The notes: generated from the letters alone by a model not told the origin. Shown: positions 17,436 through 45,746, numbered from the whole stretch's first letter. The stretch: 61,556 nucleotides of DNA, filler included, from Hausera hauseri (GCA_046269625.1; 11 parts of 11 records of this genome joined end to end with filler, not necessarily neighbours in it), one strand, 5' to 3'. Translations and numbers: made by a program.

Positions 17436-17498
17436 CTGTCATCCGGCTGCGCATACGAACACTATTACGGTCAACATAAACGCCACTACCCCTGAAAG

Positions 17499-20103: not shown

Positions 20104-21775
20104 GCTCCTGAGTCTATAAGGAAGTCGATATGTGAAGTATCTCTGCATAACAGTACAGCTTTCAACAGAAAGACTGCAGAGGCGGTGTTGAAACGTCCAG
20201 AAGATTGAGCGATATTGCCTGCGCCAGAATGTGCCGTAAAATTTGGCGGCATTATTAGTCTTTGAAGTTTTTGGAGAAAAGGAAGAAGAGGAAGAAATGC
20301 GAGGAGATTATCGTTGTAATGTTTACAACCAGGCACGCATGATCTAATCTGTGACTGAAACTTATTGTGGTAGACACAAATAGGGTTGTCCACAGCGTAC
20401 CGTTTGCTGTAGAACTGACAACCCAAAAAGCATTTCCTAGCATCCCTTCGAAATCGCGTGTGTCAGAAACAAGTCATGCGTCCGCTAGGTGAAATGGATC
20501 GAGCAGAATGTCTGGAAATGGTTCTCTCCCTTGAAGATGTAATTTCACTTCGTCGAGGCCCATTACGATTATTTAGTTGGGTAGTAATGGCCGAAATCGA
20601 CTGCTGTAACTTGTCAAACTGTTGCTGCATCATTTTCAGTTGTTTAGTAAAAATATTGTGTCTGTAATTGGAGCACAAGTGGTTGCAGCCGCAATAGGGA
20701 GAGAACTGTTGGTATGAAGAATCTCAAAGGATTTGTCAGCCATTATTGCCTATTTTTCGATAGCAGAAGACTCGTCAACAACGGTGCGTAAGGCTCTGAT
20801 TGAGCTGGGCAAAGACGATAAGAAATAACGGCGAATTAAATCCGCATTATTCGTAGGTGTCACTCCTAGCGTGCTGAGCTTCAGAATGGCCATTTGGAGA
20901 AAGTCGGATGGCTTTTGGCTTCCTATCGCGTGGTCATTAAAGTACTCTTGAATTATATTGTCAATCGAAGGATCCGTGACATGCAGTACAGCTTCACAGA
21001 GAGTCTCGTAAGGTGTCGAGGATTTTAGCAGCTTGTAGATATTATTAATCTGCTGCTTGACGTTGGCAGGCAGAAGAATTAAAAGGCTATTGGCTCGCAC
21101 AAAAGAATCAGTAATTTTGCTCGATTTTAGCCACTGTTGGCGGAATTGGAGCCGTGGTTTGCTGGAGTTGTTTTTGTCGAGGAAAAATTCCACACAAGGT
21201 AAATTTAATGACCCTCGTGACTGTTGGGAAGGTGATAAACGATAGACGTTGCCTGTACTTGTAAATTTGTCATCCGAGAAGGATGGGTTTGGGTCCGATC
21301 CACCTCAAAAGCGAAAATGGAGCACCAGGTGGATGATGGGACGTTCATGGTATGTGAAAAGGAAAAGAGAGTCAGAAGGATGTATTATAAGCCCTTGATA
21401 TGTGAAATAGAAATCAGAAGTGTTATATGATGAGGACAAAGCGTTATATAAGAACTGTGCTGTCTCGTTGAGTGGAGCTTTTAAGGTTGTAATATGTTGA
21501 TTGTAGCTAAAGACCAGGAAGGATAATTGTAATGAGTTCGTCCCAGGGGAACGATGAAATGCACGAGGGGCTTGGGTGGTTACCTTTTGGGTTAAGAAGC
21601 GGTTCGAGCGTACAGCAGGGATAGCGGTGACAAGTATTGAATGAGATGAAAGAAGATCTAAGGTTTTTGAGCTCAAAAGGTTTTCAAAATTGAGATTGGT
21701 GTTGGTTATCAAAGATTTATGAGAGCGCAAAAAATGGCCGCACTGGTGGGCGCAAACAAATGAAAAAAACTTCAC
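20104..21775 (-). mobile_element. CsRN1-like Ty3/gypsy 5' part: UBL-GG-Gag (two CHCC motifs)-protease; degenerate
   Basis: UBL ..FYFTYQGLII..IIHLVLHFRF*GG is in frame with Gag (TPYETLCEAVL, IGSQKPSDFL, FLSSLPSSIR). CF*HTRF..ARKCFLGC and CVYHNKF..RSCVPGC follow, then protease FLIDSGA at the contig edge. Confidence 0.85.
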
Positions 21776-21994
21776 CCACCTGTGTCTAGATGCCTCTGAT
21801 GATGGAGTGTCTGCCGATCAATCGGTGAGGTTGCTGTCAACTCGCGGTATGTCCGTAGAATCAATACAGTGGTCTGGTCCAGAAAGGCCGAAGTCCAATA
21901 CATGACAGCAAGCGGCGACTGGATAGACATACACATGTGTTTCCGGTGAATTGCACATTGGGAAATCGCTGGGACTGTGATTCTTTTTTTATTA

Positions 21995-24900
21995 TTAAGG
22001 CCACTTTGGTCTTGCCACGAACAAGCTGCTGCTAACAGACAGGCTCGCCGCCACAAGTGAACATCCTTTTTTTCGATTGGCAGCTGGATAAAAAACAATG
22101 TTATTCACGGCTTGAATTGGTTCAAATTGGACAACACATTTATCCAGCAATGATGCAAATGTGTGAATTCGATTATCATTTTGCTTACGCCCATCTTCTG
22201 AATCAGATTTGTCTCTTGAAGTATTTGACTTCCATGTTAACAATTGATGAGGAGTAGACAACTCGAAAACATTTGTTATCAAAACACATGCTTTTCTCCA
22301 AATATCCGAACTGAACTTAACATTCGATATAATTACTGTTTCCAGACAACTTGTGTAGAACCTAGCTAACTGCTCGTGATCTTGTAAACAACACCACTTC
22401 AGTTTATTGAGCAAGTCATCCAGAAGAGCTGTGTGTAAAACCTAGAAATACTGCAAAAATACATTAACAACAGCATGAAGCGTATGATTGCAAGTGGTAT
22501 TTAACCATTCACTTCTGTCGTTCAAAGAAAAATCTTTGGCTGAAACATGCGTTGGTCAGGTAATACTACTCGCTGCCGGTACATGTTGAAGTATCCGAAA
22601 GACTAAATTAAAATTATCCTGCCACCAACGAGACCTGAATCCACTTCCGTAACCTTTTATTATTCCAAAGAATACTGTCAAGCCTCTCGTACGAACGTCA
22701 AGTTTGCAGTTGCTAATCACTCTAAAAAGTTCGCATAGAATTGGCATCCAGCCTTTTATCCTAATAGTATCGTCATCATCAATTTTATCATATGACAAAA
22801 CCGTGCCGAACTGCTCTATAGGACTGAGGAAACTTTCTTATGACGAAATTTCTTTGAACAAATGACCTTGCTCTTCAATTAATCTGACACACTGTCGAAT
22901 TAATCGTATAGCTTCCATGTTAATGTCCGGAAAATTTGTGTTACAAGCAAATCTTGAAAGGCTTTTCGCTGAATTTAGAAACGAATCCTGTACTAAATGA
23001 AATGAAGTCTTAAAGACGTCTTTCACAACAAAAGATAGAGTCTCGAACGCCATTGCAACGATTAGTTCCTGCTCAAATAATGTACCACTAGCAGCCCGTA
23101 AGAACACCATGAGAAAATTAGTCCATTCAGAACGAATGTTGCTCCAGTGAGATTGTACAAATTGTGCGACACAACGAACAACCACGTCATCCACATTTTC
23201 TACAAATTTTCTTTGCCTTCCATAACACTGACAAATGGCCTAAGGAAGTCTTTTTGAAAATGAAAATAGGGGAATTCACACTTTTCAATATATTTCCCTG
23301 CTAATTGCCGTAACGAATCCATAGCGAATATTGCAACGTCTTCATTAGACGACCTACTAGCATCTGTAAAATGTTCACCGATTATTTGCCACACGCAAGA
23401 CCATTGAAGACGTATTCTTCCCATATTGTAATAAGCTATTTTTACAAGTGTTTGTAAACTGAATATTCGAGGCTGAGGTAGAAAAAGTTCATCTTTGTTC
23501 ACCTGGCATAGAGCTTTGACAAAGTCAACAATCGCGTCTCCATCCAGTCTGACAGAACCAGTAAAAACTTTATCAACTGCTACGATAACACTTTGAGAAC
23601 CAGTTTCACCCATGACTTCTTTAAGTAAGGCGATATTCTTTTGTCGATCAGCTAATAAAATTGTTAAATTAACTGTAGAAATCCCGTCCACATCCGAGAA
23701 GCTTGATTTAGAAGTTTTTGATACCTGGTTGCCAATATTTTGTATATCATCGGATTTCGTACTAGTTTTTCGGATATCAGCATCAAAAATCTTCTTTGAA
23801 AATATTTGAGTTGCAAGACTCTCTTGAAGCACTTTTGGTGGTCCGGTACTACCGATCAATTGGGCTGATTCAAGTTGGGACATACACCGGAGTATTTCTA
23901 ACCAGGAAGTTCCAAGATAATTTCCATCCGTATGTGCAACAGATAATAACGTTTCAATTGTATCGATATTTTTTGGCTTGATACCTTCGCTTGAACTTCC
24001 TCTTTCCAGATCCATGTTAAAAATACATGCTATTCTGATAGCACATCGAATGCCTTCCAAACAGAAGCGTGAAATATCCATATCATCACATTCCCGCAGG
24101 GTAACACTGAATGATGCTAAAAATGATCTCCATACGACTTTAAACATATGTTTTGCATGTTCTTAATGCGTAGCACTAGTTAAATCGGACTCGACGTGGG
24201 AAATTGATTCCATCACTTCTTTTGCAGCTTTCGATAATTCCTCCATTTCTATATTGAAGAGAATATTTCGATACTTTTCCGAAGATGATTGTTACTATCA
24301 ATGAAACTTACATGTTTTCGGTCAACGGTAGATTCCTTAACTTTTATTTCATTCTCCGCAATTTCATCATAAATCTTTCCGAGATATTCAACGTCCAGAT
24401 CACGGCTTTCACTAATACCACGATTCATTTTTATGTACGCATATTTGCGCATGCGATTTTTGTTTTTTATTTGCGAACTATGAAGATCAGTGGTTAGCAT
24501 GATAATAGAATACGCTAGAACGTATGCCGTATCAGCAGATTTAAATGCGGATTCATTGGGTTACACTCGCAAAACCGAGACGCAAATTTTCCCATCAATC
24601 GATCATTTTTCTGAGCTTCGCATGGTAGACGAAATCCGGACAGAAATTCCCGAAGAGGCGACACAAAATCCTTTCCGGAAAAGTCTAACTGATCCACGTA
24701 TGCATACATGACCTCGATATTGTACTTGTTATTTTCACCAAGAAAATCTCCGATGGCCGTTTTGTCAAGTCGCTCGTCTTTGTGCAAAAATTCCGCAATG
24801 TCATCCACCGTTGTTCCAAGTAAATCCTGTCGTTGTAAATAGTTCAGACCCTTCAGCGGGTACTTGTTGAATATCCCAATGCCGTGTTCGAACATTTCTT

Positions 24901-26285
24901 TCTGTTGTTTTCTGCTCGCGAAATGTTCGGGATTATCCGGTGTATTTTGCGTGACGTTTCCTACTGGATGATTCGTGTAGTTTACCAAAGACGACTGTGA
25001 GGAACTTCGGGAATTGATACTGCTGGTACTTTCGATTTTTGTTAAATTGCTTTGATTCTTTTTACCGGGTTTCGGTGCAACTCCACTGCCGATGACGCCC
25101 TCGTGTCGTTCCTGCTCGACGCCGAAATACGACTGAGATTCGGGACTGATGTAGAGTTCGTTAGACCATTCCACCATGCATTGGACGATATGACAAAGAC
25201 AGTCAAGCGCCTTAAGTCGCAATGTCTGTTGGTTTGTGTTGACATTACCTGGCGATTTCAATTGGGCTATTTTCTCCAGACTCTTCACCAACAAAACAAA
25301 AATATTCGCCAGACTAAATTCACAATCGTAATTGAGATAAATGTCCACGACGCATTGTGCATTCATACAAATACGTTTCAAAGCTTCCAGAACAAGATCC
25401 TTATGAACGAACGAACTCCGAGGTGATTCAAGAATGAACAGGAAAATTTCCTTGAAAAACACTTCGTTCTGCCGTTTTAAATGCTGTTTAAAATTGGATA
25501 ATAATGAGAGAAAAATGGATAGAGATAATTCGAATACTTCAGGAATCGATGAAACGCCGTTTTTTGATAAAGCAACACAGAGATACTGCCGAATGGCATT
25601 GATGAATATTTCGCTTTGTTTAAAAACCGGACCGGCATTTTGTAGAATATTGAGTAATAATTCCAGAGAGAGGATTTTCGAACGTAAATCATGGGATTTT
25701 GGATCGGGAATTCCATCGGGGAGGGCTTTCATTGAGAGACGACACAGACTACAAAAAATAAGAAAGGCATCATTATGAGACGCATGAGCAAAATTTTTAC
25801 GCTTAACAGATTGCGAATTGATTGTCTAAAGGCTCCTGACTTTCACCATCACAAAGACTCTCTCTACTTTCAGTCTTAGCTTTGTCAACATTAGACAAAG
25901 CGTTGTCAATTATTTTATCCACAATTTCACTAACCACCTGCCATGAGTTTTCTTCCGATTCCGTTGTTCCATTATTTTCATCTATCAACGTGTCTTCTTT
26001 GTCAATTCTTTCTGACACATCAGCAATACTTTCGTCTATTTTCATCACTTCCTACATGGTTTCTTTTTCCATTTTATTAAAGATGGAATTGATCATCTGA
26101 GTCAGAGATGCTTTAGCAGTTGTTTGGTTAACCTAATCTTTGCTAGCTAGATAAATGCCAAAGCACGTGCGGACCATGTTAATCAGATTATTTTCATGAA
26201 CTTCTAAAGTTGGATTGATCACAACTGTAAGAATACCTTTAATGATTTGCAATTGTACAGTATCACCTGATTGACCGTTTTGACG
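21995..26285 (-). pseudogene. ARFGEF1: Brefeldin A-inhibited Arf-GEF (BIG1/BIG2, Sec7 family), intronless and disrupted
   Basis: [18 protein letters not shown] (HUS box), Sec7 [14 protein letters not shown] and [44 protein letters not shown]. Multiple stops and frameshifts. Confidence 0.92.
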
Positions 26286-26385
26286 NNNNNNNNNNNNNNN
26301 NNNNNNNNNNNNNNNNNNNNNNNNNNNNNTTAATTAATTAANNNNNNNNNNNNNNNNNNNNNNNNNNNNNNNNNNNNNNNNNNNN
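26286..26385. other. Artificial contig linker
   Basis: N44-TTAATTAATTAA-N44. Confidence 0.99.
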
Positions 26386-26462
26386 CCTACGCAATGTTCA
26401 TTTCTCACTTTCCTTACAGCCTTGTCTTTTGTCTGTTCGTCGGTAATTATAGCCACTATTCG
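26386..26462. repeat. 77-bp direct repeat identical to 26926-27002
   Basis: Encodes RIVAIITDEQTKDKAVRKVRNEHCV twice, 540 nt apart and in frame, at the contig end. Confidence 0.9.
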
Positions 26463-29400
26463 GATCACCAAGTGTAATATTACTTTCCTTAATTCTTCCT
26501 TAGTATTCTCTACCATAATTTCCTCGATGAAAACTTCACCAGGTAAGTTGCTTTTGTTTATTTTGAACCGAAATGTTCTCATTATCATTGCTGCGTCGTA
26601 TAATACCTTTTCTTTTTCATTCAACATCTCGTATCTTGGTCCCGAATAGTTCACTATTTTTATAATGTTTCTCAGCAACTTGTTTAATTCTTCGCTATCG
26701 AAGTTAATCGCGGGCATGGAAAATTGCCTTGGTTCTTGTATCAAGGCTGCATTTTGGTCAATATCATCTCTTATTTTCCTCGGCCTTCCAACGGGTCGTT
26801 TCTGTTTCGGCGCAGTTGGTATTGCTTCGCTAATTGGTACTAGATTCTTATCGTATTGTTCCTTATCTTCCTCACTTTGGAGGTAGTCAAAATACATTAC
26901 AGGGTCTCGGATTCCCATAATACGTCCTACGCAATGTTCATTTCTCACTTTCCTTACAGCCTTGTCTTTTGTCTGTTCGTCGGTAATTATAGCCACTATT
27001 CGATTTGATTCCTCTGGAAAAATTCCAACGTCTATTAGTAGCTCGGGTTCGTCCAGTATCCTACCTCGGAAATATAATCGATAATTTACTTCATCTTTTC
27101 CACCGTTTTGTACTATCCACTGGTTTACTTCTCTAACCGATGTTATCGTTGTACATTAAATTTCTCTCTCTTCCATCCATTCAGCTGATAATTTTACTTT
27201 AATCGTCGTTTCGGGTTTAGCTTTCAAGAAATCAGCGTATTTCTTTATCAATAGTCTGGGTACTGAGATATAAACGGCATTTCCGCCTGAGAGTTTGGTT
27301 AATGTAGGGATCAATTGTCTCAGTTTGCTCGCCATCATGTTGACGTTGATCTGCTCAGTTAATTCTTTCTCGGCCCGTTCGGGATCCAAGAGCATATCCA
27401 TATCAAATCGTCGGTCTGTTGGAAGAATATCCTTTTTTGAAGTTGGATGGCTGTTTTTGGGTTTTGGTTCTACACATCTTCCAAATAAGCATCTCATCCT
27501 TTGTCATCTGTGACGTCTGAAAGCCCATAATCCAACAATACCGTGGACGCCCTTCGTACATTTTCGCGTATCTCGTTTAATCTCAACTGTACTTCTCTCA
27601 TTAAGTTGGTTCGAAACTCTGCTCCGTTTCCACACGCAAGTTGTATCGTTTTTAATCTTGGTCCTAGTTCATCTGTAGGGAACAATACTTTTCTTTCGTA
27701 ATCTGTTAATTCGGTCGTTACATCCGTTAACCATCTTTGTAAGAATTCTCTTTTATTCGTTAACTCTGATTGTGTGATCTTATATTTATTCTTATAAGTC
27801 TCTGATTCTTTGCCTAATTCATCTAGCTTTGTAGCTCTTTGCTTTGTGCGAATTCGCAATTCGTTTATATCTTTAACTTGAGTTGTCAATTGTCGCGTCT
27901 TGTTGTCATCTATCTCTGTCATTGTTGATATAAGCAATATTAAGCCGTGCATTTCTTTTAGAGTTTTCGAATCGGGATCTATTTCTTCAATTAGTCTCTT
28001 TACGAATTTAGCCTTGTCTGATGTGAGGTGACAATCTTTGGTTATTTCTATTAATTCAGCGCGGCAATTTTGGTCGGTATCCAATGCCCACTCAAAAGGA
28101 CAATGTAGATATTTTAGTACTTCTTCTAACGCGATTTGATGATTTGGGCAAATATCCAATGTCGATAGATCACATATGGATATTTCATCTATGGACCATG
28201 TTGCCAAATGTCGTAAACCTTCTAGGCGGACACATTTTAGTCTCATCGATAAGGAGGAGATCTTTTCCTGTTTCGCCGATAATTCCATTTCTTCGATCGT
28301 GGTATACAATTCTTCTGTGAGTTTTATTTCCTAATCTTTACTCATAAATCTTAGTCTCAATAACGCATTAAATTCAACTCGAAAGTTTGCCTATGTTTTG
28401 TAAACATCTAGGTTACGGAGTATTTCTTTTAGCTATTGTTTTAATATCGGTTTACATTCTGAATATTTCCTTAGACGATATTTCGTTAAACTCACTAATA
28501 TGTCTAACAGTTCAATCCATTCTTTGAATTGGTTCTCTATCATTGGTTTCGCGTTTATTACATTCTCTAACTGTTCATAGGCATCATTCAATTTATCGTC
28601 CGGACCTTTAATATAGTCCATTACTCCTTTAACGTAGTTAACTTCTTTCTTGTATTCGTCCAATTCTAAAATATATGTTTTCGTTATGTTTTGCACTTCT
28701 TGGTCCTCTGCATACGTTATTTTATTCCTATATCTGTAGATTTCGGAGCGCCTTTTTTCTTGCGAGGATATGAGAATTCCTATGTCCGCATATTCTTTAG
28801 GTGCACTGTACGCATCTTACACATTTCCATTTTGAGAGGAATGTCTACCGGTTCTATGCCTAGTATTAAAAATTCGTTTTCATCTAATTCGTATATTGGT
28901 TTATTTTTGAGGTGATAGATTACTGCAGTCTCTATTTCTACCATTAACATCTCTAAGTTCCGTTTAGTTCGCTTCTGTTTTGGATCCGTTTCTAGAGTCT
29001 TTAGTAATCCTTGGGCAGTCGCCACTTTACTCTTAATTTCTATTTCTTGATTATACCATGTGACGGTGAAGTCGATTCAGATTTTTATCCATGAATATAG
29101 TTTAGTCTTCCATTTTTCAATTGACTTCTCCATAATTTCATCCATTTTCTCTGGTTCCTTCTTCCTGCTAACGTCTTCTTCAAGGTACCATTTAAATTCT
29201 TTATACATTCTTTCGGCGAACTGCTGTTCTTTTCCAGACACATGTACTTGAGTTTTTATATGGTTTAATTCTTCCAGATTCCGACGCATCGTCCCTGTAT
29301 CTCTTGGCGCATCCTAATTTCATTTAATTTATCTGCATTTTACCAGGATTTTCTGATAATCCACACCTTTTCGTCTAGCCTTTTAATTCGCTCCGTGTCA

Positions 29401-30494
29401 TCAGTCTCGCCTTCGCCATCGGGTAATAGACATATCTCGTTTATCTCGCTGTTCGTGTCTCCTACTGTTACGCGTGTATTTGGAATATCTGGAACTTTAG
29501 TAAACTCCACATCGGGAGTGTCTAAGTTTGATATGTCCTCTTCTCGGACTTTAGTTTTCTCTGCATTGTCTCTTTTTAATGGCGATCTTGATCGACCCTT
29601 TGGCTTCTTTTTAAGCGATGGATTACGACCTCTATTTTTGTTATTTTAAGGACTAATGGATCTATATATTCACTCTCGATTTCGTCAGCCACATCTTGAC
29701 GTCCTTCTGTCAGGGTTTCACATTCAGCGTCCAAGTCTACACAGGGTGATACTGCTGCTATTTCGCTTTTGTTCACCTCTTTTGTCTGAGCGGGCTTTCC
29801 AGGCACATTCTTCTTGCGAACCATATTACTATTGTCTGGCGCTATTAAGTACTCATTTTTTTAAAGGTTCAACTAATCCGTGATATACTTCTAATATTCG
29901 AACGTTATCTTTATATTCCTTTCGAGCCTTCAGGATTTGCGGATTATTTGTTTCTCGTTGGCTTTTCAAATATCCACGTGAATCATGAATATCCAAAATT
30001 GCGTCTATGTCGCCTCTGGGACCATATTTCGCCTCTAGATCTTCCTGCGTCTTAATCATACTTGTCTTAGTCGGTTCGGTAAACGAAACGCTTGCGGATT
30101 TGTTCTAGCTATGTGACCTTCCTTACCACATGTATAACATATTAAGTCCTCATTTGTGGGTGATTTTGAGCGGTTGTCGCTCCTAGAATAGCCCTGATTT
30201 AAAGGTTTTATCCGACTACTTCCGCCGTATTTGTTTTCGTTGTTCCTAAAGTCATTATATCTGTTTCCGTCCTTATATTTAAAACTTTTGTTATTGCTCT
30301 TATAACCATCTTGGTTCGAGTTGTAGTTCGGCTTTGCCGCGTTCATACTATTTAAATTCCGATTATTGTCGAAGCTTTTGTTCCCATAACACGGATTTTT
30401 ATCCATCCTATTATCGAAATTTCGATTTCGATTATGTTCATGGAATAGTCAACTGCTTCTGTTTCTATCGCTGCGCTCGTTTAGTTCGGCATTC
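26386..30494 (-). mobile_element. Degenerate retroelement-like long ORF: Gag zinc knuckle followed by >1000 aa of coiled-coil/unknown sequence containing a UBL domain
   Basis: An N/R/S-rich linker then CYTCGKEGHIAR (30103-30140). All downstream ORFs are co-oriented and joinable by stops or frameshifts. UBL at ~26985-27210. Confidence 0.6.
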
Positions 30495-30594
30495 NNNNNN
30501 NNNNNNNNNNNNNNNNNNNNNNNNNNNNNNNNNNNNNNTTAATTAATTAANNNNNNNNNNNNNNNNNNNNNNNNNNNNNNNNNNNNNNNNNNNN
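30495..30594. other. Artificial contig linker
   Basis: N44-TTAATTAATTAA-N44. Confidence 0.99.
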
Positions 30595-30595
30595 A

Positions 30596-30763
30596 ACAAC
30601 AGACAGCAGTCCGCTTTGTTATATAAAACCTGAAAGTGAACTCAACATTCCAAGTGGTTTTCCAAAATTTTATCCGTTACGAAACTTAGATTTAACAAAT
30701 GATACATTATGGATCGAATTTGAATGGATTCCAGAGGAAACACCAATGGAGAAAAGAATTTAA
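30596..30763 (+). CDS. C-terminus of a TRAF-type MATH domain protein (partial)
   Basis: PLCYIKPESELNIPSGFPKFYPLRNLDLTNDTLWIEF matches the TRAF-C pattern F.RP.SEMNIASG.P.F.PL....DDTIFI. AATAAA follows at ~30845 and ~30859. Confidence 0.7.
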   Translation, partial: TTDSSPLCYIKPESELNIPSGFPKFYPLRNLDLTNDTLWIEFEWIPEETPMEKRI

Positions 30764-30889
30764 TATCTAACGTATTTGTCATATGAATTGTCTTCCATTG
30801 TGACAAAACTGAATCAGGTTATTTCATCGATCACTATTTGGTTAAATAAAGATTTGTAAATAAAAATTTCATGTTATCGCTTGTGACTT

Positions 30890-32390: not shown

Positions 32391-32419
32391 GTCTCTTTGA
32401 GGACAGAATTTGACTGGAA

Positions 32420-35350
32420 GTATTCAAGTCTTTAAAAATATTTCCTAAGTCTGTCAGACTTTTTACTGCCATTGGACAAGCTTTGCGCATTTATGGTACT
32501 GCAGAACTTTTTTTACCTTGGCACATTTCTTTGAAGTCTTCCACCGGAAATTCATAGTCGCTGATATCAAACCTCCTATCTTAGCTCCTGTTTTTCTATC
32601 ACACCACAATTTACTTGTCGACTGCAGATAGCATCTTGTGACCAAAAATACAGTCAATAATACAAATTCACGGAATAGTACACCACTTGTCGCACAGCTG
32701 ACTGCGGTGCCAAAATTGATATTAAAGAAACTTGTTATGAAACTAAATAAATTGAGTTTTGGCAATTCCGATTATGACGATTCTGGTCATACAATCACTA
32801 AAAGAAATAACTACTAATACAAACATAATCTCTCAGCCTGCATCTCCATTCTCACAACTAGATTCAGCTCTTTGAGATTACATAACAACTTCTTGTGCCA
32901 GAACATTAAAGAAAGATGCCAATTTTAAACCTGCTTTTGAAACATACTATCACATCGTCACTGAACACCAAAGGCAAATTGAGCAGAAGGGTCGGCCACT
33001 TTCTCCTCGCAGACGGAAAGCGGTAGACTTGGAATTTAACGAACTAAATAAAACAAGAACCATAAGAAGTCAAAATCTCATTGGGCCTCTACTCTACATA
33101 TTGTGCCCAAGAAAGATGGCACTTTTTGGCCCTGCGGCGATTATTGCCAATTGAACACTATTACGGTAATAGATGCATATCCATTACCGCTCATTTACGA
33201 CATTCTACATCGACTCCATGGAAACACCATCTTTTCATCCATAGATTTGCACAAAGTCTGCCATCAGATTCCCGTGCACTTGCAGACATACCTAAAACGG
33301 CTGTAACAACACCTTTCAGCCCTTTCGAGTATGTTTGTATGCCATTCGGACTTCATAGTGCTTCACAAACATTTCAAAGGCACATAGACACAGCATTCGC
33401 CGGTCTAAACTTTGCGTTCCCATATATAGACAACATCCTCATTGCTTCGTCGTCTCCAAAACAGCATTCTGAGAATTTACGCATAGTCCGTTAGCGCCTT
33501 CACCAAATAACCTCGAAGTCAACTTCGCTAAATGTTGCTTTTTTCAACAAAGGATCAGCTTTCTTGGTCATATTATCAGCAAATCTGACCACTCTCTTCA
33601 AGAAGATCGCATAACTAAGCTTAACAACATTCATTTGCCACGTACAATAACTGAAACACGTTCTTTTATTGGCACACTCCACTTTTTTCACAAATATATA
33701 CCACATTGCTCTGAATTAACCGCTTGCATTTCTGGAAAAAAAGAAACAATTAATTCACTGGACTCCTGAAATTGTCAACCAATTTGACCATTTACGTGAA
33801 GGTTTAAAAACTGTCGAAATACTAGCTTATTCTAAACCAGGTGCTGAACTAATACTAACCATAAATGCTTCTACCACAGCAGTTGGAGCTATACTGCATC
33901 AAATATTCAATACTGCCAATGAACCTCTGGAAATTTTTCTCGTAAATTAACACCTCCCAAAAGCCGTTATTCAACTTTTGACAGAGAACTCCTAGTTATA
34001 GTACTAGCGCCAAAACACTTCTCGCATCTGTTATTTGCTAGGTCTTTTACCATTCAAACAGACCATAAACCTTTGCTTCGTATAATGGACATGAAAAATC
34101 CGTCATCTCAAGACGAACGTCACATATAGTACTTGTCGACATTGGATTTTAAAATTGTACATGTTTCCGGTACTGATAATTTAGATGCCGATTTTTTGTC
34201 AAGGTCAGTTAATATCGTAGGAGTTACTCCTATTTTTTCACAAGCAGTGATTTGACAAAACGTGCCAACACAGGATATTCTCAAATTCTTCAAATCACAA
34301 AAAATCATCGACGGAATTGCTTACGACACCCCCTCACCCGGTAATCACAAACCAATATTGTCTTCATTGTTGCAGAAAACTGCATTTCACAGCGTTCATG
34401 CTCTTCATCATCCAGGTGCCAAAGCAACATTTCTACTTCTTCAGCGCAACGTTATATGGCCGTCGATGAGATCAGGTGTACAGGCATGGGTTAAGGAGTG
34501 TGTGACATGTCAAAAGTTTAAAGTTAACAACCATCTGAAACCACCATTATATCACTTCCCCTGTGCTTCGCTTTTCGAGTCCGTGCATATTGACCTAGTC
34601 GGCCCTCTTCGTCGAAACAACGGCCATCAATTCACATTGACCACGATGGACCGTGCTTCTCGATGACCAGAAGCCATTTCAATACTCTCCACCAACTCGG
34701 ACATTATCGCTGAAGTTTTCATTAAAACTTGGATTAGCAGATTTGGCTCACCTCGTTTCATTATCACGGACCAACGTTCACAATTTGAGTCAAATCTTTT
34801 TAAATCTTTATTCAATCGCTTGGGGATCAAACACGTACATTCTTCTCCATATTATCCTAAAGCGAATGATTTACATGAGCGATTCCACCGTGCAATGAAG
34901 ACCTCGCTCAAAATCCTTGCTGAATCACATAGCAACTGGGCATCTCTCCTTCCACTGGTCCTGCTTGGTTGGCGTAACACACCCTCTACAACTACGGGTT
35001 GTGCACCAGCTGAAGAATTGTTTGGCACACCTATACGTGCGCTTTATGAATTAACTGATACAGATGATACGCCAACAGATGAGCTAATTTGAAATGCACA
35101 AAATCACTTTGTGGCATTAAGCACTCATTTTGTAAAATTGTAAACAACAACAAGTCAAATATACCAAATGATCTTTATACCACTAGGTTTTTTTGGCTTT
35201 ATAATCCGTCACCTTGTGGTTTTCCATCACAGTACGTTCGGCCCTTCAAACTACTTGCATTGTCGTCTCACGCTACCACGATTCTTAAAAGCGGCAAAGA
35301 ACAAGCTGTTCACATTACAAACCTAAAACCAGCTTTCTTCGTTCACGATA
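32420..35350 (+). mobile_element. CsRN1-like Ty3/gypsy pol (PR-RT-RH-IN), degenerate
   Basis: PKKDGTFWPCGDYCQLN, MPFGLHSASQTFQR, YIDNILIAS, YSTFDRELL, TDHKPL; integrase HALHHPG..CVTCQ, VHIDLVGP, ITDQ, ERFHRAMK. Confidence 0.92.
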
Positions 35351-35944
35351 CTCTTGAAGACACCAAAACCAACAAAAACTCTACTGGCACTTTTCTTGGC
35401 TTTGGTACACTGGCCTTTGCCGCTAATTCACCTTCAACCAATTTAACTATTCACATACCACCTCCATTTGAAGACAAAGCTTCTCTCGCTGCTTCTTCTC
35501 AACCTCTTCCAAATTCTCAATCGCCTTCACATCCTCAACTTTCTTCAAATACACACTTTTCTGAATCCGCTGCACTTAGTATCTCTCCTCAACACTCCTC
35601 AAATGCTCAATCTTCCTCCAATCTTCAATTCTTCAAATCTTCTCCACCTTTATTATCTTCCTCACCTTCAGTTAACTTTCCTTTGCAACTTTCACTTTCC
35701 ACATTTAATACAACTTCCACGGAAAATTTCGACAATCTTTCACCCCAATGTACATCTCTGCAAGCGAACTCAAGACACACAAACAAAACACAGAGTTATT
35801 TTCAGCAGGTACAGTAGGGAGCAAAATATTGACGAAGTACAACGCCTTTTACATGCGAAAACCGAGTAGAACACAAACTTTTTTTCATTTTGCGTTTATT
35901 TTCTTCTCTGTTACCTTTCTGCTTTATAGCTTTCATTTTGCCAC

Positions 35945-36105
35945 GGGGTGATGTGGTACCCACGTGCTTTGCCGCTCCGAGGCCCACTTTGGCCGGACAC
36001 AGCCGGGTGCATTGTTTCGCGCTGGTGGCGCCGTTGGCAGGACCTTTGATTCCTCCTTCGGGGGTTTTCGCAGCGGTCGTTATGACCCAACCGTTCAAAT
36101 TCAAT
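35945..36105 (+). repeat. Probable PPT and start of the 3' LTR
   Basis: GGGGTGA followed by TGTGGTACCC and an abrupt GC-rich segment downstream of pol. Confidence 0.45.
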
Positions 36106-37730
36106 TAAGCAGTCCAGTATTCGAAAGTTGCAACATCAACGAAATATATGTAGAGAGCGTCGATAAACTCAGCGTTGTTTATGAAACATTCAAATTTATT
36201 CCCATTTATTCCCAAGCGAAGAAAGTAAAAATAACTTTATTTAAGTCGAACAAAAAGCGGTTAAACAAATGGAACGAGTTCTTCAATCAATGAAGAAAGC
36301 ATGACTTCGAAAACACAAATTTTTTATTAATAGCCGAAAACAAAACACTAATGAAAGAAATTCGAAATTTGAAACATATGTTAGCTGACAAGTAAGCTAT
36401 AGAAAATGAACTTAAAAATCGTCTCAATGAAACATCCAAGCAATCTGCACATGAATAGAAAATGAAGATTTAAAAGTTGCGGGAACTTATTCGATTGATG
36501 TTGATTCATTGTCCAGAATTACTGAACATATCAGTTATCCCAATGTACAGCATAACTATTTCGATTGCTCTTGTCAAAATGTTAAATGGTCGTGTTTGTG
36601 ATCTTTTAAATTGGTATTGAAATGTCAATAATCCTTATGCATAGATGTTTCTCTGTTTGTGTATCATTGTAACATATTCGTTTATTCCTTCCACTTAATT
36701 TATAAAGTACAAGTGCCAAACAAAAATCGTCATTTGATCAATCCACCCGACCTATTTTATGCTTGTTATAAAAAGTTGTTTATATAAATGTTATTTATTT
36801 ACCAATATATATTTTTAATTTTTTGTGTGCGTTGACATATTGTATTATGGTGGCCAATAAAGATTCTCTACCGAGTTTATTATCTTGTTCGTATCTGGAA
36901 TGTAAGATGAAAACTATTTTTGAGGTGCCTGTTTCTTTGACCACGTTTGATCAAAAGCGGCACCCAAAGACGTATGTATTTCTTATGAACTATTCTCGGG
37001 ATTTCAATGTTACAGGAATGTTTCGTTCTCAATCCTTAAATCGAGCCTACCACCGGAATCTCGGTGGCGTCAGAAAACAGAAATACACAAAACGGTTTCG
37101 GCCATACCAAACATCATGGACTATTACAATTGTTGAACTATAAAACGGTGGGTGGATTTTCCATTTGACGATTGTTGGCACATTTTTAATTTTAAAAATA
37201 ACATTATTTTTGTCGGCGATTTGTCCTGTAATTTCGGATAATGTTTGCAAAGCTGTAAATGGATTCACAGCGTGCAGAGTAATAATCTGGAGAGAGGAGT
37301 CATTGATTTCATGATTAAGAAATAAGCCAGTACTAATGAAATGCTAATTTGTATTTTGGCTAACAGTAATAAATCCGTTGAAGTTTGGCCATTAATACAA
37401 GTTCAATATACGGTTACAAATAAAATGCTTTATGAAATTGATTTTGACAATTTTCTGCTGATTTTGACAATTTCCCACTGAAATACAATTCTTGGAAGAA
37501 GATAGATATACTTGCAAGAATTTGTCAATTGCTCTTGTGAATTGTGACACATTTAAAGTGTCACACAAACTATTCTTCCGCATGTATTGCTCTTGAATCG
37601 ATATTTCGCTCTCTTCTTCAGATCATAATGCTAATCGAGAAGTTTTCAATGAAAGTATAGAAGAACTTGATCATGCTCGGATAATTCAAAATCCAAAGAC
37701 AGACGATGGTCACGTTTTTATGCAAATGTT

Positions 37731-39212
37731 AGTAATGTGAAAATGTATGTTTTGTCCCACCCCGGGGTGAGGGAGGGTAATTGAAAAATAAATTTTGCAT
37801 ATGTGCCAATCGATAGTGCACACTGTGCACTATCGATCGGTAGTGTGCTAGGCGACGGTGCCGCTAGGCACCGTTGCTATGCACATTTTTGCACATTTCA
37901 CAAATCGGTAGCTGCACAGTGCAGTATTGATCGAATCGATCGGGACAAAGTGCTAATCGATAGTTCACGTCAGTGCACATAGATTAGTACACTGTGCAGG
38001 TGTGTTGCACATGTGCAAGTGTAAAAAATCAGTAATATCGGATTTCCGATAATCCCAATATTGATGATTAGGACATGTGACCGAGTGCAATCGATTGGAA
38101 ATACGATGCACTATGTGAATGTGCAATTAGAATTTAAATTTATCGAGTTGATTTAGAATAATATCGATCCAAAATGCAACTGAGACAGACTTCCCATAGG
38201 CTTTTTAGGTCCTAAGGAGTCAAAATTCGATATTATAATTAGCGGAGATAGATAGGAAATCGACTATGGCGATCTCGAATATCGAATCAAATAATCGAAA
38301 TTCGAAATTTTTTGGCCACAATATCGAATATCGAACTATTCAAACAATCTAATAGCGGCATTCGATTCCTCATATATGAAAAACCCCTTATACATAAAAA
38401 TTATTCCATGAAAATGTACTATAAAGATATAAAATCAATATTTCCAATTAAGCAAAATGTGCATTTAAAGCCCAGTAAAGCGGAAATCAATAAATCCAAT
38501 AGCAGGACTTTATAGGAAGTCATGTATGTTGTATATGAATTCGAGCTTCCATGTCGAATATTTCGCTATTCGAACTCGAAAACTCGGTCAACTGTACGTT
38601 ATTCGAAGAATCTGATGGCTTAGTCGATTATACATGCGCGAAATCTTATATTGCAATCAATATCGGCGCGGTACAGCGCACCGCGGTGTATTAAAACAAG
38701 GCTTAAAGACAAGTAAAAAGGTACGTAAAAAATACTAAGTAATTAAACGGTGCTTATTTCAATTGCACAATTGACGGTGAAATTGGAGGTGAAGCACACT
38801 GAAATCAATAAATCTAATAGTATACGTAGATAGGAAACAATGTATGGTGAGTCTGAATCTGGTGTTACATATTCGATTACATTATTCGAAATCGAATAAT
38901 TATCTATCCGAACTCAAAAAATCGATAGTGTACGTTATTCCAAGAACCTAACGAGCTCAATAGATTTCCCATATATGAAAATCTTGATGAAATTTTAAAT
39001 TTGGCGCGGAGAAATTTATGTATTTGATGCATTAAAACAAATTTTGGTACATCTATGCATGATATTGACAAGTCAAGTGCACCATACAAACAAGTTCATG
39101 TAAAATGATGCATTAAAACAAAGTGTTCTAGAATGTTTGAAAAAATCTATAAACGAGACAGTATGCGTTCACATGCCTACATATTTCATTATTTCCAAAT
39201 TCACTTCCAAGA
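37731..39212 (+). mobile_element. Polinton family A left end (terminal repeat and promoter region), palindrome-rich
   Basis: Starts AGTAATGTGAAAATG..TTTGTCCCACCCCGGGG. Homologous to 45982-47513 (-), 45747-45881 and 61142-61556. Directly precedes a pPolB gene. Confidence 0.8.
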
Positions 39213-41236
39213 ATGGTGAGTTTGTTATTTGTGTTCCTCAAATAATTGATTTGTTTAGATTTGCAACTTCTAAAAAGTTTGTATGGCGCAGAAACACGAG
39301 GAGCAGAATTGCCACAGTGTGATGCGGAATTATTTTGGATACCAGCACAATAGGACTCAATACTATATATGTCCTGTATGTGAGGTAGTGTGTCGGATCG
39401 TTTACGAGGAATTTTACAACCAGCATAAACAGCATATGGATTCATTCACAAAATCGAAGAAAGAAATATTCAACAATAATATGCCAATGAAACCAAGTGT
39501 CCTAAAAGCAAATCAGATGTGCGGTTCCTATGCTTACTGCACATCCAAAGCACATAATCGCAACAGTGTCATGAAACGATGCAGCCGTATTATGGATACA
39601 AATCCAAAAATATCCAATACTATATATGTCCGGGATGCGAGACTGTATGCGGCACAGATTATATACAGTTCTATTATGATCACAAACATCTTTTGAGTCA
39701 CTTCGCGTCAAAGTCCAAGAAGGCCATCTATAGTGAGCAACATAATATTGATGCATCTGCTTCGCAGTATGATACTTCGCAGTATTCTGCCTCGCATTAT
39801 GCTGCAGGATCTGGTGCAGCAGCTGCGAAACATCTTAGAGAATTGAAACGCGCAGCTGCATCATGCGCATCAGGTCCATCAGGCACATCAGGCCCATCAG
39901 GCGTAGCGGCTTCAACAAAAATTCAAAGACGGCGGCCAGTTGATGCTGCAGCATTAAAGAGGAAATGCCGCAGATATGTTATTGATGCAACTGACCAAAC
40001 AACCATTAAGGAGTCCCTGGAATATACGAAGGAAGAAACAGAGGGAATTCTCCAGGAAAACATAGCTGAGCTCAAGGCGCTTAAGGTTAACATAAAACTA
40101 TAGCGCACGTACGTCAATGTTGATGGCGAAGAATCCAATAGGGCCTTCAAGACCAGAAATAAACCCATATTGGAAAACACAAATATAGCTGAATGGCTGC
40201 ATGAAGAGCATACGAAGCTGATTCGTAAAACTGATGAGAGCCAGAATAAGAAGAGTGGATGGGCTCTGGTAACCATCAAGAGACTGCTTATATATGTACA
40301 CAGATACTCCCTCATGCGAAGCAGTTCATATATACAGCTTCCGGAATGGATCGCTAATAAAATAATCATGTGTCAATGTCCACAATAATGACAACAAGTG
40401 CTTCATGTATGCCATTTTATGTAAACTCGTACGGGATCAACGTAGTGCTTCAGGAATTTGGTTGTATAAGAATGTGCAACACAAATATGACTTTCAGTGT
40501 ATCACATTCCCTCCGTCCATAGATGAAATCAAGAAATTTAGCCGCATCAACAACATGTCCATCAATATCTTTGGATTGGATGAGATGGACAAATTCTACC
40601 CCTTACAAATATGTTATTCTGAATTGGAAGATCATAGGGATCTGCTCCGACTAGACGATGGCGATAAGAAACATTATGTTTGGATCAAGAACTTTGAGCG
40701 TCTAGTCAGATCCCAAATTATGAAACATAAGGAAAGAATAGAAATATTCAAAAGATGTTTATCCCATTTCAGCGGTAAGTTAGCTGTGGAAAAGCTGAAG
40801 GAGCACAAGATGTACTGCAACAACAATTATTGTGTAAGGCCAGAATTTTCCAAAGAGGAATATATCGAATTTAAGGAATTCGAGAAGAAGATCAAGGTCC
40901 CAATTGTCGTCTATTGCGACTTTCAGGCCATTCTCAGGCCAGTTTACACATGCAGTTCCAGTCCTCAATATAGCAGTAGAACGGCATACCAATATCATAA
41001 ATTATCATCGTATTGTATGTATGCCAAAGGACTGGACGGTGAACCATATCTATTCAGGGTTCCAGGTGCAGCAGCACATTTCATGAAGAGACTTGAAGAC
41101 ATGGCTCACAGGCTTGGGGATATGCTGCAACAACATAAGAACGACATGAGCATGTCTTGGGTGTAAGAACAAGAATGGCAAAATGAAGCATTATGCTACT
41201 TGTGTGACAAGTCCTTCACCAAGGAAAATTGGAAAG
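39213..41236 (+). pseudogene. polB: Polinton pPolB N-terminal half with a duplicated zinc-finger module and an ATG-proximal intron
   Basis: ATG|GTGAGT..TTTAG intron at 39216-39258; YFG..YYICPVC and YYG..YYICPGC; KSGWAL, SSYIQLPEWI, NNDNKCFMYAIL, HYVWIKNFERL, VVYCDFQ (exo I), CYLCDK. Confidence 0.88.
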
Positions 41237-41336
41237 NNNNNNNNNNNNNNNNNNNNNNNNNNNNNNNNNNNNNNNNNNNNTTAATTAATTAANNNNNNNN
41301 NNNNNNNNNNNNNNNNNNNNNNNNNNNNNNNNNNNN
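41237..41336. other. Artificial contig linker
   Basis: N44-TTAATTAATTAA-N44. Confidence 0.99.
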
Positions 41337-44300
41337 TTTTACTGTTTCCATCTTCTTGATAATGTAAGTTCCTCGGTATTTTAATTATACTTAATCTTTC
41401 CATCTCTTTTGCCATTTTTTAATTTTCTCGTTCAACTCTATCGGAACCTTCTCGTCCCAGTCTACTCCCATTATTCATAACTGCTGTAAATACATTTTAC
41501 CTAACAGCGTATGACAGCTGAGAAATCCCAGTGGATCGAAGACCTTTGCCAGAATATTTAACAATGTCCTTTTTGTTATTTCCAATCCTTGCTTGACTCT
41601 GTTTTCAAATTCGAATTCGTCGTTTTCAACTCTCCACTTCATTCCCAACGTTTTTGCAACTACGTTCGTCTTTTCCACTATATTAAATTCTTTTGCTCGA
41701 CTGGAGATAGGTATTAAATTTATCAACTCGTCAGAATTCGATACCCATTTGTGAGGTTCCATTCCAGCTGTTTTCCAAATCTCGTTTAGTTTGTTATACA
41801 GTGATATCGCTTTCTTTTCAGTACAGACTGAATCGATGCAATCATCCATGTACGTAGAACACTCAATTGTTCCTACAGCTCTAGGATATTTATCCTTAAA
41901 CTTTTCGGCATTATACCTTGAAATTAATTGCGCCAAAAGCGGGCAGGCATTCAACCCGAATACCAGACGATTGAATTTATACGTCTTGAGTCTTCCATCC
42001 TTATACCATAGGAATCTCAAGTATTTCCTATCTTCTGGTTTCACCTTAATTCGCAAAAACATTTCTTGAATGTCACATATTACTACCCATTTACGTGTTC
42101 TTATTCTCAATAGTATATCTACAATGTCCAGTTGCAATTTTGGACCGGGTTCTAGAAAGTCATTTAGACATTTTCCCCGATATTTCGAAGCGGCGTCGAA
42201 AACTATTCGACATTTTGTGGTTTCCCTGTCAATTTTCATGACAGGGAAATGTGGCAAGAGCCAAGCTGATTCCCGTTCCTCATGCTCTTCCATCACTCTA
42301 TTATATTTTTCTCCAGTATGGGCTGTTATTACCTTACCATAGGCCACCTTAGCCTTTTCATCCTTATCCAACTTATGCCTTAGAATATTTAGTCATTTTT
42401 GCGCCAACCATTCATTTCTTTCGATTTCAGGTCGTCTTCCCCCTTTCTAGGGTAATGGTAACCAGTACCTACCTTCTTCGTAGGTCGTGTCTTTCAATAC
42501 CCGTCCTATGATCTCCTCTTCTTGTAAGCTTCTCTCAGACACCTTTGAGTCAAAGTTGAACTCAATCTCCCACAAACGGGTCAAGTCGTTTTGGATCTCT
42601 TCGGTTCTAGTCCAGAATGTCTTCACAAAATTACTATTTATTTTTCTTTTTCCTTCCTTTATTAATCCCACACGGGTCCAGCCCAAGGGAGTCAACCGTG
42701 ATACTGGTTCACCTTTTTTGAAATAGACCTCCTCAATTGACTGGTGTAGCTGTATATAATTGGCCCCTATGATACCATCTACTTGTAATCTGTGGGACAT
42801 CGTGGCAAATTTCAGACTCCTCAGATGAGGCCATTTTTGTTTCTCTATGAATAAGTTCACGGCTCCCATTTTTCCAGTTGGATTTCTCATGCCAACGCCA
42901 CGAATTTAATATCTATTGATTGGTCTGTACTCGCCAGTCCCAATTTTACTCTGTCGATAGACATCTTTGTTTTTTCCCTACGACAACCGTCACCGTTAAT
43001 CTCTCCGTTTTTCTGCCAACGTCTAATTCATCGCATACCTTTAAATCGATGAAGCTTTCCGTGCTGGCATCGTCTAAAAACATTGTTGCTTTTTGCCGTT
43101 TCGTTCCGTTTTTCAGCCATACTTCCACTGTTCTCAGAGCTACGACCTCTTCTTTTTCATTTATCTTCTGAAAGCCTTGGGTTACATAGGTTCTAACGTC
43201 CTTTTGCTGATTTTCAACCCCTCCTCTGTTTTTCTCCTTTAATGTGCCAAGCAACGATACCTCTGGGTCTACATTCGTCATTCTTTCATAAGGCTTTCTG
43301 GCTTCATGCTCCAGTCTATTTTTTTACCATTGTTGTTATCATTATCTTTTTTGCCACCCTTTTCTGTAGGAACTTTCATTCCTCCCCATACCTACATTTT
43401 TTTTCAAAGTACTTACATATCCTTTCCTGATCGTCTTTACTAGATTCGTGACAATATTTACAGTTATCCCCGAACTTGCATTGTTTATTTTTATCATAGT
43501 TCCAACATCTTTGGAACCGAGCTCCTAGCTCTGTATTGGGTTGACTGATCTGTATCCACATTTTATCTTTTCTATCATTTTTTTTGAAATTGGAACTTTT
43601 GAACTTTCTCTTTGCTGTATGCGCTTTCTTTGGGAAGTATGATCGCCCATCTCCTACTGAGGCATATCGGCCACCTTGATCATATTAAATGTTTCTATTC
43701 CTCTTACTCTTTCAATGACATTTCTCCTGATCATCGCTTCCTTCTCCACCTAATTTTTCAATTCTTCAACGGTTCTGTCTAACTTTTTTCTATGATATTT
43801 CTTTCCCATAGTAATACAATTGACTCTGGGAGTTTCTCCATAAGGTTATGATACAACAAACCTCCACCAAGTTTTATTGTTCTTCCTAGATTCTTCAATC
43901 TTAATATTATACCGTCTAACAATGCTACGAACTCATCCAGCCCGATGATGTCTCCTTCTTCTATCGTCTGGAACTTTATAACTTCGTTTATAAACGCCGC
44001 ATAGGAGCGCTGTTCTCCACCATAGTAAGAGTCCAATTTTTCCATGGATGCTCTATATCCTTCTTTTGATAGATCGAAATTTTCGACCAGTTTTTTCGGC
44101 TCTCCATACAAACATTGATTTAACTGTAGTTGTTTATATATGCCCGACATTGGAGTTTTGTGGATACACGTGTCAAATGTCTTTCTCCATTTATCGTATT
44201 CTTTAACTATCCCCCCCCGAACTTCGGCAACTCTAATTTTTGTAACTTTGTAAGATTACCCTTTCCCTTTTCTCCTCTTTCGATCTTCCGTTGACGGCCA

Positions 44301-45735
44301 TTAGTTTATTTTCTCTCGAAGTTCTTTCATAGATTATGGCGTTGATTTTTTCATTCTGATCATCTAGCTTCTACATATCGTTTTCCAGTAACGTGATGTT
44401 CTCCTTCAACTTTCTTGCCGCGGTAGCCAGTACACACAGCTCCCCTTGAAGTTCGGTGTAAGCTTTGTCGTATTTTTGATGATAGACTTCGTATTCTTGA
44501 TCACTCAAGCTCGCATCCATCAACTTCCTCCGAATCGCTGATAGATGATTTATAAATTTACGTCATTCCGACAGTCTATCTTATAATTCTTCTGTAGTCA
44601 ACTCGTTTCCACCTTTTAACCGCAAATGTAGATGAATGGTCGAACCCTTCTGGATATAGTATTCGCTAAGTTTTCGACAATCCTCAAGTTGTTTTCCGTT
44701 ATAAGTTAACCGTTGTTGTTTTGTCGGGATCCCTTCCCTTTCCTCAACTGCCGACTTCAGCTCTTCTACTTTGTCTGACGTTTTTACTAAGACCATAATT
44801 ATTTTCCCGAAATTGTCTCGAGAAATATCGTCGTTTTCCCCTCCTCTAATCTTGTTTTTTCCTCTTGCTCAAATTCCTTGAGGACGAGTTCCCCGCTTTC
44901 ATCCTTCTTATGTGACACCTGCAGTAATTGCGATTTGTCCCCTTCTGGTATGCATTCCGCCAATGTCTTTTTCCGCTTTTCACCTTGAATTTGTGGTTCT
45001 TGGCCAATCCTTCTAATTCGAAGTTCAACAATCTTGAACTTCGAATCTTTGTTGAATTCATGGGGTCCATTTAAATTTCCGTGGTAACTCGTCTCGAACG
45101 AGAACCCTTTTACAAATTTGCATCCCCAGTCAGTCGCCACTGATTCCGTCAATTGCTGTCTATTCTCCATTTGTTTAGAGACATAGACATACTTTTTCTT
45201 CCCTTTTAAATATTTATCGCCTTCGGTCCAAGATACCACAACTTTCAATATTAGCGTTGCCCTTGTAGAATAGTCACGATGTTTCATTTTATTCATTTCA
45301 CCGTTGGTCCTCCTCGTGCATATTGAACAAAAGGTTCGCGCTTTTATTCCAACATTCATACGGAATGAATAATCTCTGGAGACAAGGAGACCTCGAAAGA
45401 CCAAAACATCACGTAGATCGTACCTGCGGATCACGGTGCGGAGCACAAACTACGCTCTGCTACCATAAAATGGAAGTTTTATATAGACGCTACGTAACAT
45501 GTCACCATAAATTAGAGATTTTATATGAAATAAATATAGTGAATTATACATATAAACTTCCAGATAAATGACTGATTAGTCTCCGATACCATCTCCCGAT
45601 ATAATTCTTACCATCTCTTCTCTGGGCCCATACAAGCTTTTTCTCAAGGTATATCCTTACTTACTTCTACTTGAAGAATATTGTGCCACATAACTGTTCA
45701 AATATGCACTCATTACAAGGTTACATACATTACCA
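41337..45735 (-). mobile_element. BEL/Pao LTR retrotransposon 5' part: LTR, PBS, ubiquitin-Gag (CCCH fingers), protease, RT
   Basis: LTR TGG..CCA at ~45471-45735; PBS TGGTAGCAGAGC (initiator tRNA-Met-like) at 45454-45465; Gag KLELPKFGG, YKQLQLNQCLYGEP; protease ALRTV..FLDDASTESFI; RT LPHFPV..CRIVFDAAS, LVFGLNACP, YMDD, KVFDPLG. Confidence 0.93.
44608..44834 (-). pseudogene. Ubiquitin domain embedded in the BEL/Pao Gag ORF
   Basis: Restoring one A in GGAAAATAATTATG gives 76 aa, [76 protein letters not shown]. By hand count 41/76 residues are identical to ubiquitin. Confidence 0.93.
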
Positions 45736-45746
45736 GTAGAAAGAAA

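Follow-up and report, generated by a model that had tools for sequence, protein, structure and literature searches.

Divergent ubiquitin-like leaders ahead of Gag in BEL/Pao and gypsy retrotransposons as probable substrates of host deubiquitinases

In pestiviruses, ubiquitin is a processing signal cut by cellular hydrolases: host ubiquitin, captured repeatedly and independently in cytopathic strains, lies in frame before a viral protein, and the cut makes the authentic N-terminus of that protein, as set out in the available text of two reports (PMC8310069, PMC13517609). Likewise, in SDE2 and FUBI–eS30 a very divergent N-terminal ubiquitin-like domain (UBL) is cut after its Gly-Gly (GG) end by a cross-reactive ubiquitin-specific protease (USP), and the new N-terminus sets stability; the accessible part of the SDE2 report describes cleavage by USP5 of a UBL with less than 20% identity to ubiquitin, for which GG, L70 and R73 are needed (PMC13572447). 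Here we describe a window (the whole stretch of DNA analysed, 61,556 nucleotides from the Hausera hauseri assembly GCA_046269625.1) in which decayed long terminal repeat (LTR) retrotransposons of the BEL/Pao and gypsy superfamilies carry a UBL with a GG end ahead of Gag. In the usual view, Gag of LTR elements begins at a start codon beyond the primer site and is matured by the protease that the element encodes. We consider it likely that one BEL/Pao group and one gypsy lineage place a variable leader and a UBL-GG ahead of Gag, and that a host deubiquitinase cuts after the GG, freeing Gag with a fixed, stable N-terminus.

The window consists of 11 unrelated contigs of 4–11 kb with N-linkers between them, and one host for all of them is not a given. 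An earlier, sequence-only reading had proposed recurrent UBL-Gag fusions in three retroelements of a single host. The proposal holds, and holds lineage-wide, for the BEL/Pao element (contig 41337–45881) and the gypsy element (contig 20104–26285), while the third candidate (contig 26386–30494) is unconfirmed. The restriction to one host is not supported: the fusion is found across many metagenome records, and the window contigs need not share a host. All three cases lie on the minus strand and all three window copies are decayed; the tests described below therefore rest on relatives.

The ubiquitin domain of the BEL/Pao copy (44834–44608, minus strand, as are all features of this element) is recognised by Pfam PF00240 (E 8e-20), ends in LRLKGG and is in frame with the helical start of Gag. 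The description of this domain as near-canonical was generous, as 35 of 62 aligned residues are identical to ubiquitin by manual count. DUF1759, reverse transcriptase (RT) and Peptidase_A17 follow in that order by Pfam. The Gag region at 43797–44607, read from Pfam and translation as a helical N-terminal part and DUF1759, is broken by stops and a frameshift; three in-frame stops lie between the ubiquitin domain and DUF1759, and a further frameshift falls within the ubiquitin domain itself, near 44802. RT and the start of Peptidase_A17 occupy 41478–42392 and are 49–50% identical to ubiquitin-bearing relatives. Gag also contains CCCH-type zinc fingers (43382–43510; PF00642, E 4e-4), at the position of which the closest relatives have Cys-His knuckles. 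An array of such knuckles is, we assume, a usual feature of BEL/Pao Gag; the window copy lacks the array and has the CCCH fingers instead, possibly through a swap of the nucleocapsid.

The ubiquitin domain does not stand at the start of its open reading frame (ORF), since a stop-free frame of 216 codons leads into it. The leader (44835–45449), open up to the N-terminus of ubiquitin, belongs to no known family, with no match in Pfam or in the Atlas. A 12-mer at 45454–45465 resembles a primer-binding site, being an exact match to a motif of such sites, presumably initiator-Met-like in tRNA type. The same three-residue read-through of this word occurs in the leader of the intact relative P0195.

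Among BEL/Pao relatives, the fusion is found in single ORFs. The best 120 of 216 relatives found with the RT include none with a precomputed PF00240 match; the N-termini of the top two matches (P0007 and P0008) start inside the ubiquitin tail, in the same register. A search with one of these two proteins gave six matches, three of which carry both PF00240 and DUF1759. Four BEL/Pao proteins (P0193, P0194, P0195 and P0127) have PF00240 followed by DUF1759 in one ORF. P0127, a cluster member, is a polyprotein of 2000 residues in which a leader of 160 residues, ubiquitin, Gag and Pol share one frame, and P0195 has the same build; the integrase is present only in these two relatives, while the order DUF1759 Gag, RT, Peptidase_A17 is found in the window copy as well. 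In an RT tree of 48 rows, the ubiquitin-bearing BEL elements separate from 17 full-length relatives whose proteins open with Gag, with a support of 94 in the Shimodaira–Hasegawa-like approximate likelihood ratio test, in a quick tree whose root is unsure. The tree does not settle whether the ubiquitin-bearing elements would form a clade or a grade.

The BEL ubiquitin might have been a single-copy insertion. In the contigs of three runs compared at 80% likeness, the family is many-copy (4624 pieces in run X1), and diverged copies cover the ubiquitin domain in X1 and X2; the domain is therefore not a single-copy insertion. One X2 record covers both leader and ubiquitin, with 65 differences. Among the records listed for the three runs, none spans the GG–Gag junction with 31 letters to either side of it. 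A repeat of very high depth lies at the end of the BEL contig (45745–45881) in all three runs.

In the gypsy element, the highly divergent UBL proposed ahead of Gag (21299–21529, minus strand, as for the rest of the element) is confirmed by a profile built from the domains of relatives only, which finds the window domain at E 1e-10. The domain ends in GG, with one in-frame stop just ahead of it, and has no match in Pfam or among PDB sequences. Its AlphaFold model is a beta-grasp fold, the outcome on which the earlier proposal depended, with a predicted local distance difference test score of 70–92 over most of residues 11–80, and continues into a loose linker and then a helical capsid; the relatives used in building it included the near-ubiquitin P0150. 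Foldseek places ISG15 as the best match, with SUMO, FAT10 and ubiquitin also among the top structural matches, and alignment to SUMO1 by VIA-align gives a Z of 10.7 and a root-mean-square deviation of 1.8 Å over 72 residues. The Gag that follows (20290–21298), of the DUF7041 family by its relatives, is interrupted by stops and a frameshift and includes, in translation, two tandem CHCC fingers (20471–20325). Upstream lies a leader (21530–22065) whose last 95 codons are stop-free and without ATG by frame analysis. No primer-binding site was found on the window contig.

Searched for among 1.84 billion representatives, the gypsy Gag has 63 matches, mostly DUF7041, of which 34 have at least 60 residues ahead of the Gag core. 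A domain with a GG end lies 14–48 residues ahead of the core in 31 of these 34, and three shorter matches also show the tail. PF00240 is detected at E 0.01 in 10 of the 63 (best 4e-23). In DNA, a scan using seven close relatives gave 19 loci, in 17 of which UBL-GG is in frame with Gag, and gag ends on the same slippery A-run in all eight loci checked. Scans of viral contigs gave no matches. The CX2HX9CX3C motif of the window Gag, a hallmark of CsRn1-like elements (PMC2582038), is found in two copies in 26 of the 34 UBL-bearing matches, in one copy in two and in none in six. In 11 loci the primer-binding site, presumably of the tRNA-Leu type, differs from the tRNA-Trp site of the CsRn1 clade, and because of this the elements are filed as CsRn1-related and not as CsRn1 members. 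UBL-bearing rows form one group in the large Gag tree (support 97), which was made in quick mode; the group includes four rows called without the domain, while P0172, which has a UBL, sits outside the group on a long branch. A scan of the window with the UBL profile for a fourth UBL-Gag reached a gypsy pol at 32800–35100 (plus strand) and found neither gag nor UBL upstream of it. This pol is decayed, and its RT motifs resemble those of the UBL-bearing loci.

The domains have drifted far apart while their tails have been kept. The median identity among 30 gypsy domains compared is 18%, and Ile44, of the hydrophobic patch by which ubiquitin receptors bind, is retained in one of 30 gypsy representatives (most have T, S or C instead) and in none of five BEL domains. 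The tail follows the pattern hydrophobic-R/K-L-x-G-G, with L or I at P4 in 37 of 39 rows and R or K at P5 in 27 of 34 gypsy rows; GG is present in all 39 tail rows, which were chosen by GG, and the unbiased count is 31 of 34. In 32 of 39 rows GG is followed by a small, stabilising residue (M, S, A, T, G or V), against 33% of such residues in the linker; proline is never found there, and a primary destabilising residue once, the rows being related so that the p-value of this comparison is overstated. These are stabilising and destabilising residues in the sense of the N-end rule. In 12 locus pairs, the ratio of nonsynonymous to synonymous substitution rates (dN/dS) of the domain is 0.15–0.54 in the 10 with an estimate, and its interval lies below 1 in eight. 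For Gag the ratio is 0.04–0.21; for the leader it is 0.24–0.90, with an interval that reaches 1 in all eight pairs. These pairs share loci, and the leader alignments are poor. The UBL is under purifying selection, the tail is kept and the fusion is in one frame in intact relatives. Taken together, the kept tail, the lost Ile44 and the selection make up, as far as sequence can tell, the pattern of a cleavage signal and not of a receptor ligand, and cleavage after GG is likely.

Three further features, which the sequence-only reading had missed, concern the domain and what lies ahead of it: a leader open from the LTR, pieces of host genes within it, and re-capture of fresh ubiquitin. Among the 11 gypsy loci that extend 270 nt upstream, 10 have a leader open for at least 90 codons, despite an A+T content of 69–80%. 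In nine loci that were shuffled, the other frames have 2–17 stops and no more than 0.3% of shuffles lack a stop. Nine of 11 loci have their first in-frame ATG 94–324 nt ahead of the primer-binding site, through which the frame runs in phase 0, 1 or 2, depending on the element. In four circular loci this ATG falls within the LTR, past the pol stop and before the primer site. A leader frame that is open yet unconserved makes sense if the leader product is cut off. Tandem repeats of the LTR or leader are part of the open frame ahead of the UBL in P0194 (residues 1–135), in P0195 (residues 1–90) and in the leaders of L007, L008 and L013. The leader was also considered as a membrane anchor, a role rejected since its hydrophobicity is not above that of shuffles in any of nine loci.

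Pieces of host genes lie ahead of the UBL in seven of the 63 gypsy matches, five recognised by Pfam and two (P0159, P0173) by eye only. The Pfam cases comprise Rrp44 with CNOT1 (P0130), H2A, SCC3, 5'-nucleotidase, and SelO with dynein. Two recur on separate contigs (P0130/P0197 and P0156/P0201), and in P0201 the order is a peptide encoded by the primer site, the nucleotidase piece, and UBL-GG-Gag. The window offers a candidate of the same kind: a decayed, uninterrupted, 3'-truncated BIG1/Sec7 sequence (22066–26285, minus strand) with DCB, HUS, Sec7 and HDS domains lies directly upstream of the gypsy leader in sense orientation. Over its last ~390 codons it shares a frame with the UBL-Gag ORF, and it shows homology to residues 1443–1540 (weakly to 1670) of a 1937-residue Sec7. 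Capture as cargo is the likelier reading; less likely are an element that landed in a pseudogene of its host, a host with few introns, or gene calls that were wrongly joined. LTR elements are known to capture host mRNA in this form, as partial, intronless and sometimes two-gene pieces in sense orientation inside the element, according to the available text of a study of LTR-mediated retroposition (PMC5131818).

Near-ubiquitin domains are found in L007, L012, L013, L014 and P0150, within one tight Gag group whose other members carry old domains; that of L012 is identical to ubiquitin at 57 of 76 positions by manual count. The near-ubiquitin rows sit nested within the Gag tree and do not form one clade (approximately unbiased (AU) test, p 0.043). 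In the domain tree the 12 old domains fall together (100/99), and a clade of L014, L008 and L010, which are sisters by Gag, is rejected (AU p 0.001), trees of a 76-residue domain being weak. The simplest account would be at least one replacement of an old domain by fresh ubiquitin, together with module exchange; slower evolution in one branch, in place of fresh capture, is a less likely alternative.

In the proposed mechanism, translation would start at an AUG in the LTR and run through the primer-binding site, and the precursor would be cut after GG by a promiscuous host enzyme of the USP or ubiquitin C-terminal hydrolase type. FUBI, for instance, is reportedly cut by USP36 (PMC8354635). The cut would set the N-terminus of Gag, mostly to stabilising residues, and would make Gag indifferent to the sequence upstream, so that the leader could drift and take up pieces of host mRNA by template switching. 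Host ubiquitin could also supply a new copy in place of a domain that had drifted far. A wider form of this reading is that gypsy and BEL/Pao converged on a host-cleaved ubiquitin adaptor, renewed from host ubiquitin once worn, through which the LTR and the packaging leader come to serve as a translated bay for cargo. Captured pieces of host mRNA would be made as leader-UBL protein and cut from Gag without cost to the capsid, so that autonomous elements would shuffle and express fragments of host genes; this we advance tentatively, as somewhat less probable than its negation. The independence of the captures was earlier argued partly from the mutual dissimilarity of the UBLs. It is supported by the different superfamilies; dissimilarity is no proof of it, since the domains of a single gypsy lineage are themselves so unlike.

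Several observations weigh against cleavage by a host deubiquitinase. Many tails differ from LRGG, the variable residue at P3 being often L, C, Y or N, and R72 is lost in four of five BEL domains. Most deubiquitinases also read the Ile44 face, which is gone in these domains, and the body of the domain is itself under purifying selection, which is compatible with a further role. Four matches within the gypsy group start at Met with no domain called, and are either incomplete gene calls or real losses. Two loci depart from the leader pattern: in L014 no more than 91 codons are open and the first ATG comes beyond the primer site, and L006 is broken. For the cargo, the evidence consists of predicted proteins.

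The alternatives fit these observations less well. The cut might be made by the element's own aspartic protease, which is encoded downstream, or there might be none and the domain might help folding or expression, as in fusions of ubiquitin with ribosomal proteins, N-terminal ubiquitin being an aid to expression. This is unlikely: proteases of the retroviral type favour hydrophobic residues at the scissile bond and not Gly-Gly, and an uncut helper has no need of an invariant tail. Alternatively, the domain might remain on Gag and engage ubiquitin receptors, in budding through the endosomal sorting complexes required for transport (ESCRT) or in shuttling to the proteasome. The sequence-only reading had offered such engagement beside cleavage by deubiquitinases; the marks are those of a protease-cleaved signal, and the ESCRT and proteasome arm is not supported because Ile44 is so rarely kept. 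Selection on the domain body favours engagement, as do the five gypsy members close to ubiquitin that retain Ile44, but the invariant part is the cleavage tail and no env was seen on the complete circular loci inspected by eye, making this role improbable. Equally doubtful is that the released leader-UBL, with its free Gly-Gly end, is the key product, either conjugated to proteins of the host or element or acting as a decoy of the activating enzyme E1 or of deubiquitinases, with the trimming of Gag secondary. The cut would indeed expose a C-terminal GG, fresh ubiquitin has been re-captured and some leaders carry host domains, but R72 and R42, which are used in recognition by E1, vary widely, the leader is unconserved, and the constraint on the residue after GG points to the Gag side. 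It is very improbable that the fusions are chance insertions or artefacts of gene calling. The window copies are broken, and wrongly joined exons may have entered predicted proteins in their upstream parts; yet the same junction is found in dozens of clusters below 50% identity and in raw DNA loci, the domains are under purifying selection, and the BEL ubiquitin is covered by diverged copies in each of two runs. This reading is refuted for the BEL/Pao and gypsy cases, and may hold for the cargo and the third case.

That third case should be left out of the leader strategy. The putative UBL (26985–27210, minus strand), proposed by the earlier reading, is internal and without GG, has no Pfam match at E 0.1 and no match from either UBL profile, and finds ISG15 only weakly, at E 0.4. 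It lies in a long decayed ORF, ~960 codons downstream of a zinc knuckle (30104–30139, minus strand; PF00098, E 4e-5), and the contig ends before any RT; it is therefore not a Gag leader, and the type of element is unproven. No relatives of the neighbouring ORF were found in searches that included the Atlas. The contig end 26386–26468 repeats ~80 bases of the internal stretch 26925–27001, through an assembly artefact or a duplication.

Elsewhere in the window, an intronless ASH1L-like ORF of 967 codons (1588–4491, minus strand) has AWS, SET, bromo, PHD and BAH domains. At 5921–9271 (minus strand) a piece of RNase H is followed by ORFs of 212 and 459 codons without a Pfam family match, possibly accessory or envelope-like genes of another LTR element. 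Two decayed stretches on the plus strand (10991–13772 and 39274–41166) resemble, by eye, DNA polymerase B genes of the Polinton/Maverick type. Two tandem intronless genes of ~700 residues at 14646–19610 (plus strand), the second with a PqiA domain, are of higher GC content; we take them to be protist-like, and they hint at contigs from more than one organism.

If the proposed cleavage is real, the two superfamilies would leave the first processing of Gag to the ubiquitin machinery of the host, and would translate across LTR and primer site. This would be a new dependency on the host and a point of host control for retrotransposons, as well as a route by which autonomous elements could carry and express pieces of host genes. 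Dozens of natural UBLs that share ~18% identity and keep only what deubiquitinases need would also make the looseness of deubiquitinase recognition directly testable. We found no description of UBL-GG leaders on retrotransposon Gag in the literature searched; Repbase, Dfam, GyDB, subscription papers and supplements lay outside that search and may hold annotated examples. The principle is known; what appears to be new is that two LTR superfamilies employ it as a fixed leader of Gag.

Among described elements, the available text on the CsRn1 clade of gypsy (PMC2582038), whose main text does not contain the word 'ubiquitin', describes features that recur here: CX2HX9CX3C fingers, a DUF7041 Gag, a pol frame distinct from that of gag, and a slippery run at the gag stop. 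The elements here differ in their two tandem fingers, their primer-binding site and their UBL leader. BEL/Pao elements (Belpaoviridae) share with the present group DUF1759 Gag, RT, Peptidase_A17 and integrase, in one ORF in the relatives, whereas the leader and ubiquitin ahead of Gag are absent from the 17 full-length relatives in the RT tree, and the CCCH fingers are particular to the window copy. The giant gypsy Burro/GYPSM1 resembles the third case, in the portion of its report that is accessible (PMC6431247), with a giant ORF that opens with CCHC knuckles and also encodes coiled coils and, internally, a Ubi2/SUMO-like domain, ahead of a downstream protease–RT; the third contig shows a single knuckle, the likeness is one of layout without a sequence link, and an internal domain is unlike the GG leaders of the other two cases. 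In LTR-mediated retroposition, as far as the available text of PMC5131818 describes it (the word 'ubiquitin' is absent from its main text), the cargo usually replaces genes of the element, whereas here it lies in frame ahead of UBL-GG with Gag intact. SDE2 and FUBI–eS30, in the accessible accounts, are host genes, and SDE2 exposes a destabilising Lys where the Gags here mostly have stabilising residues; the UBL here is moreover internal to a leader. Finally, the pestivirus inserts, as the parts of those reports at hand present them, are recent, near-identical to ubiquitin and found in variant strains, whereas the UBL described here is an old, fixed trait of Gag that stands behind an LTR-initiated leader.

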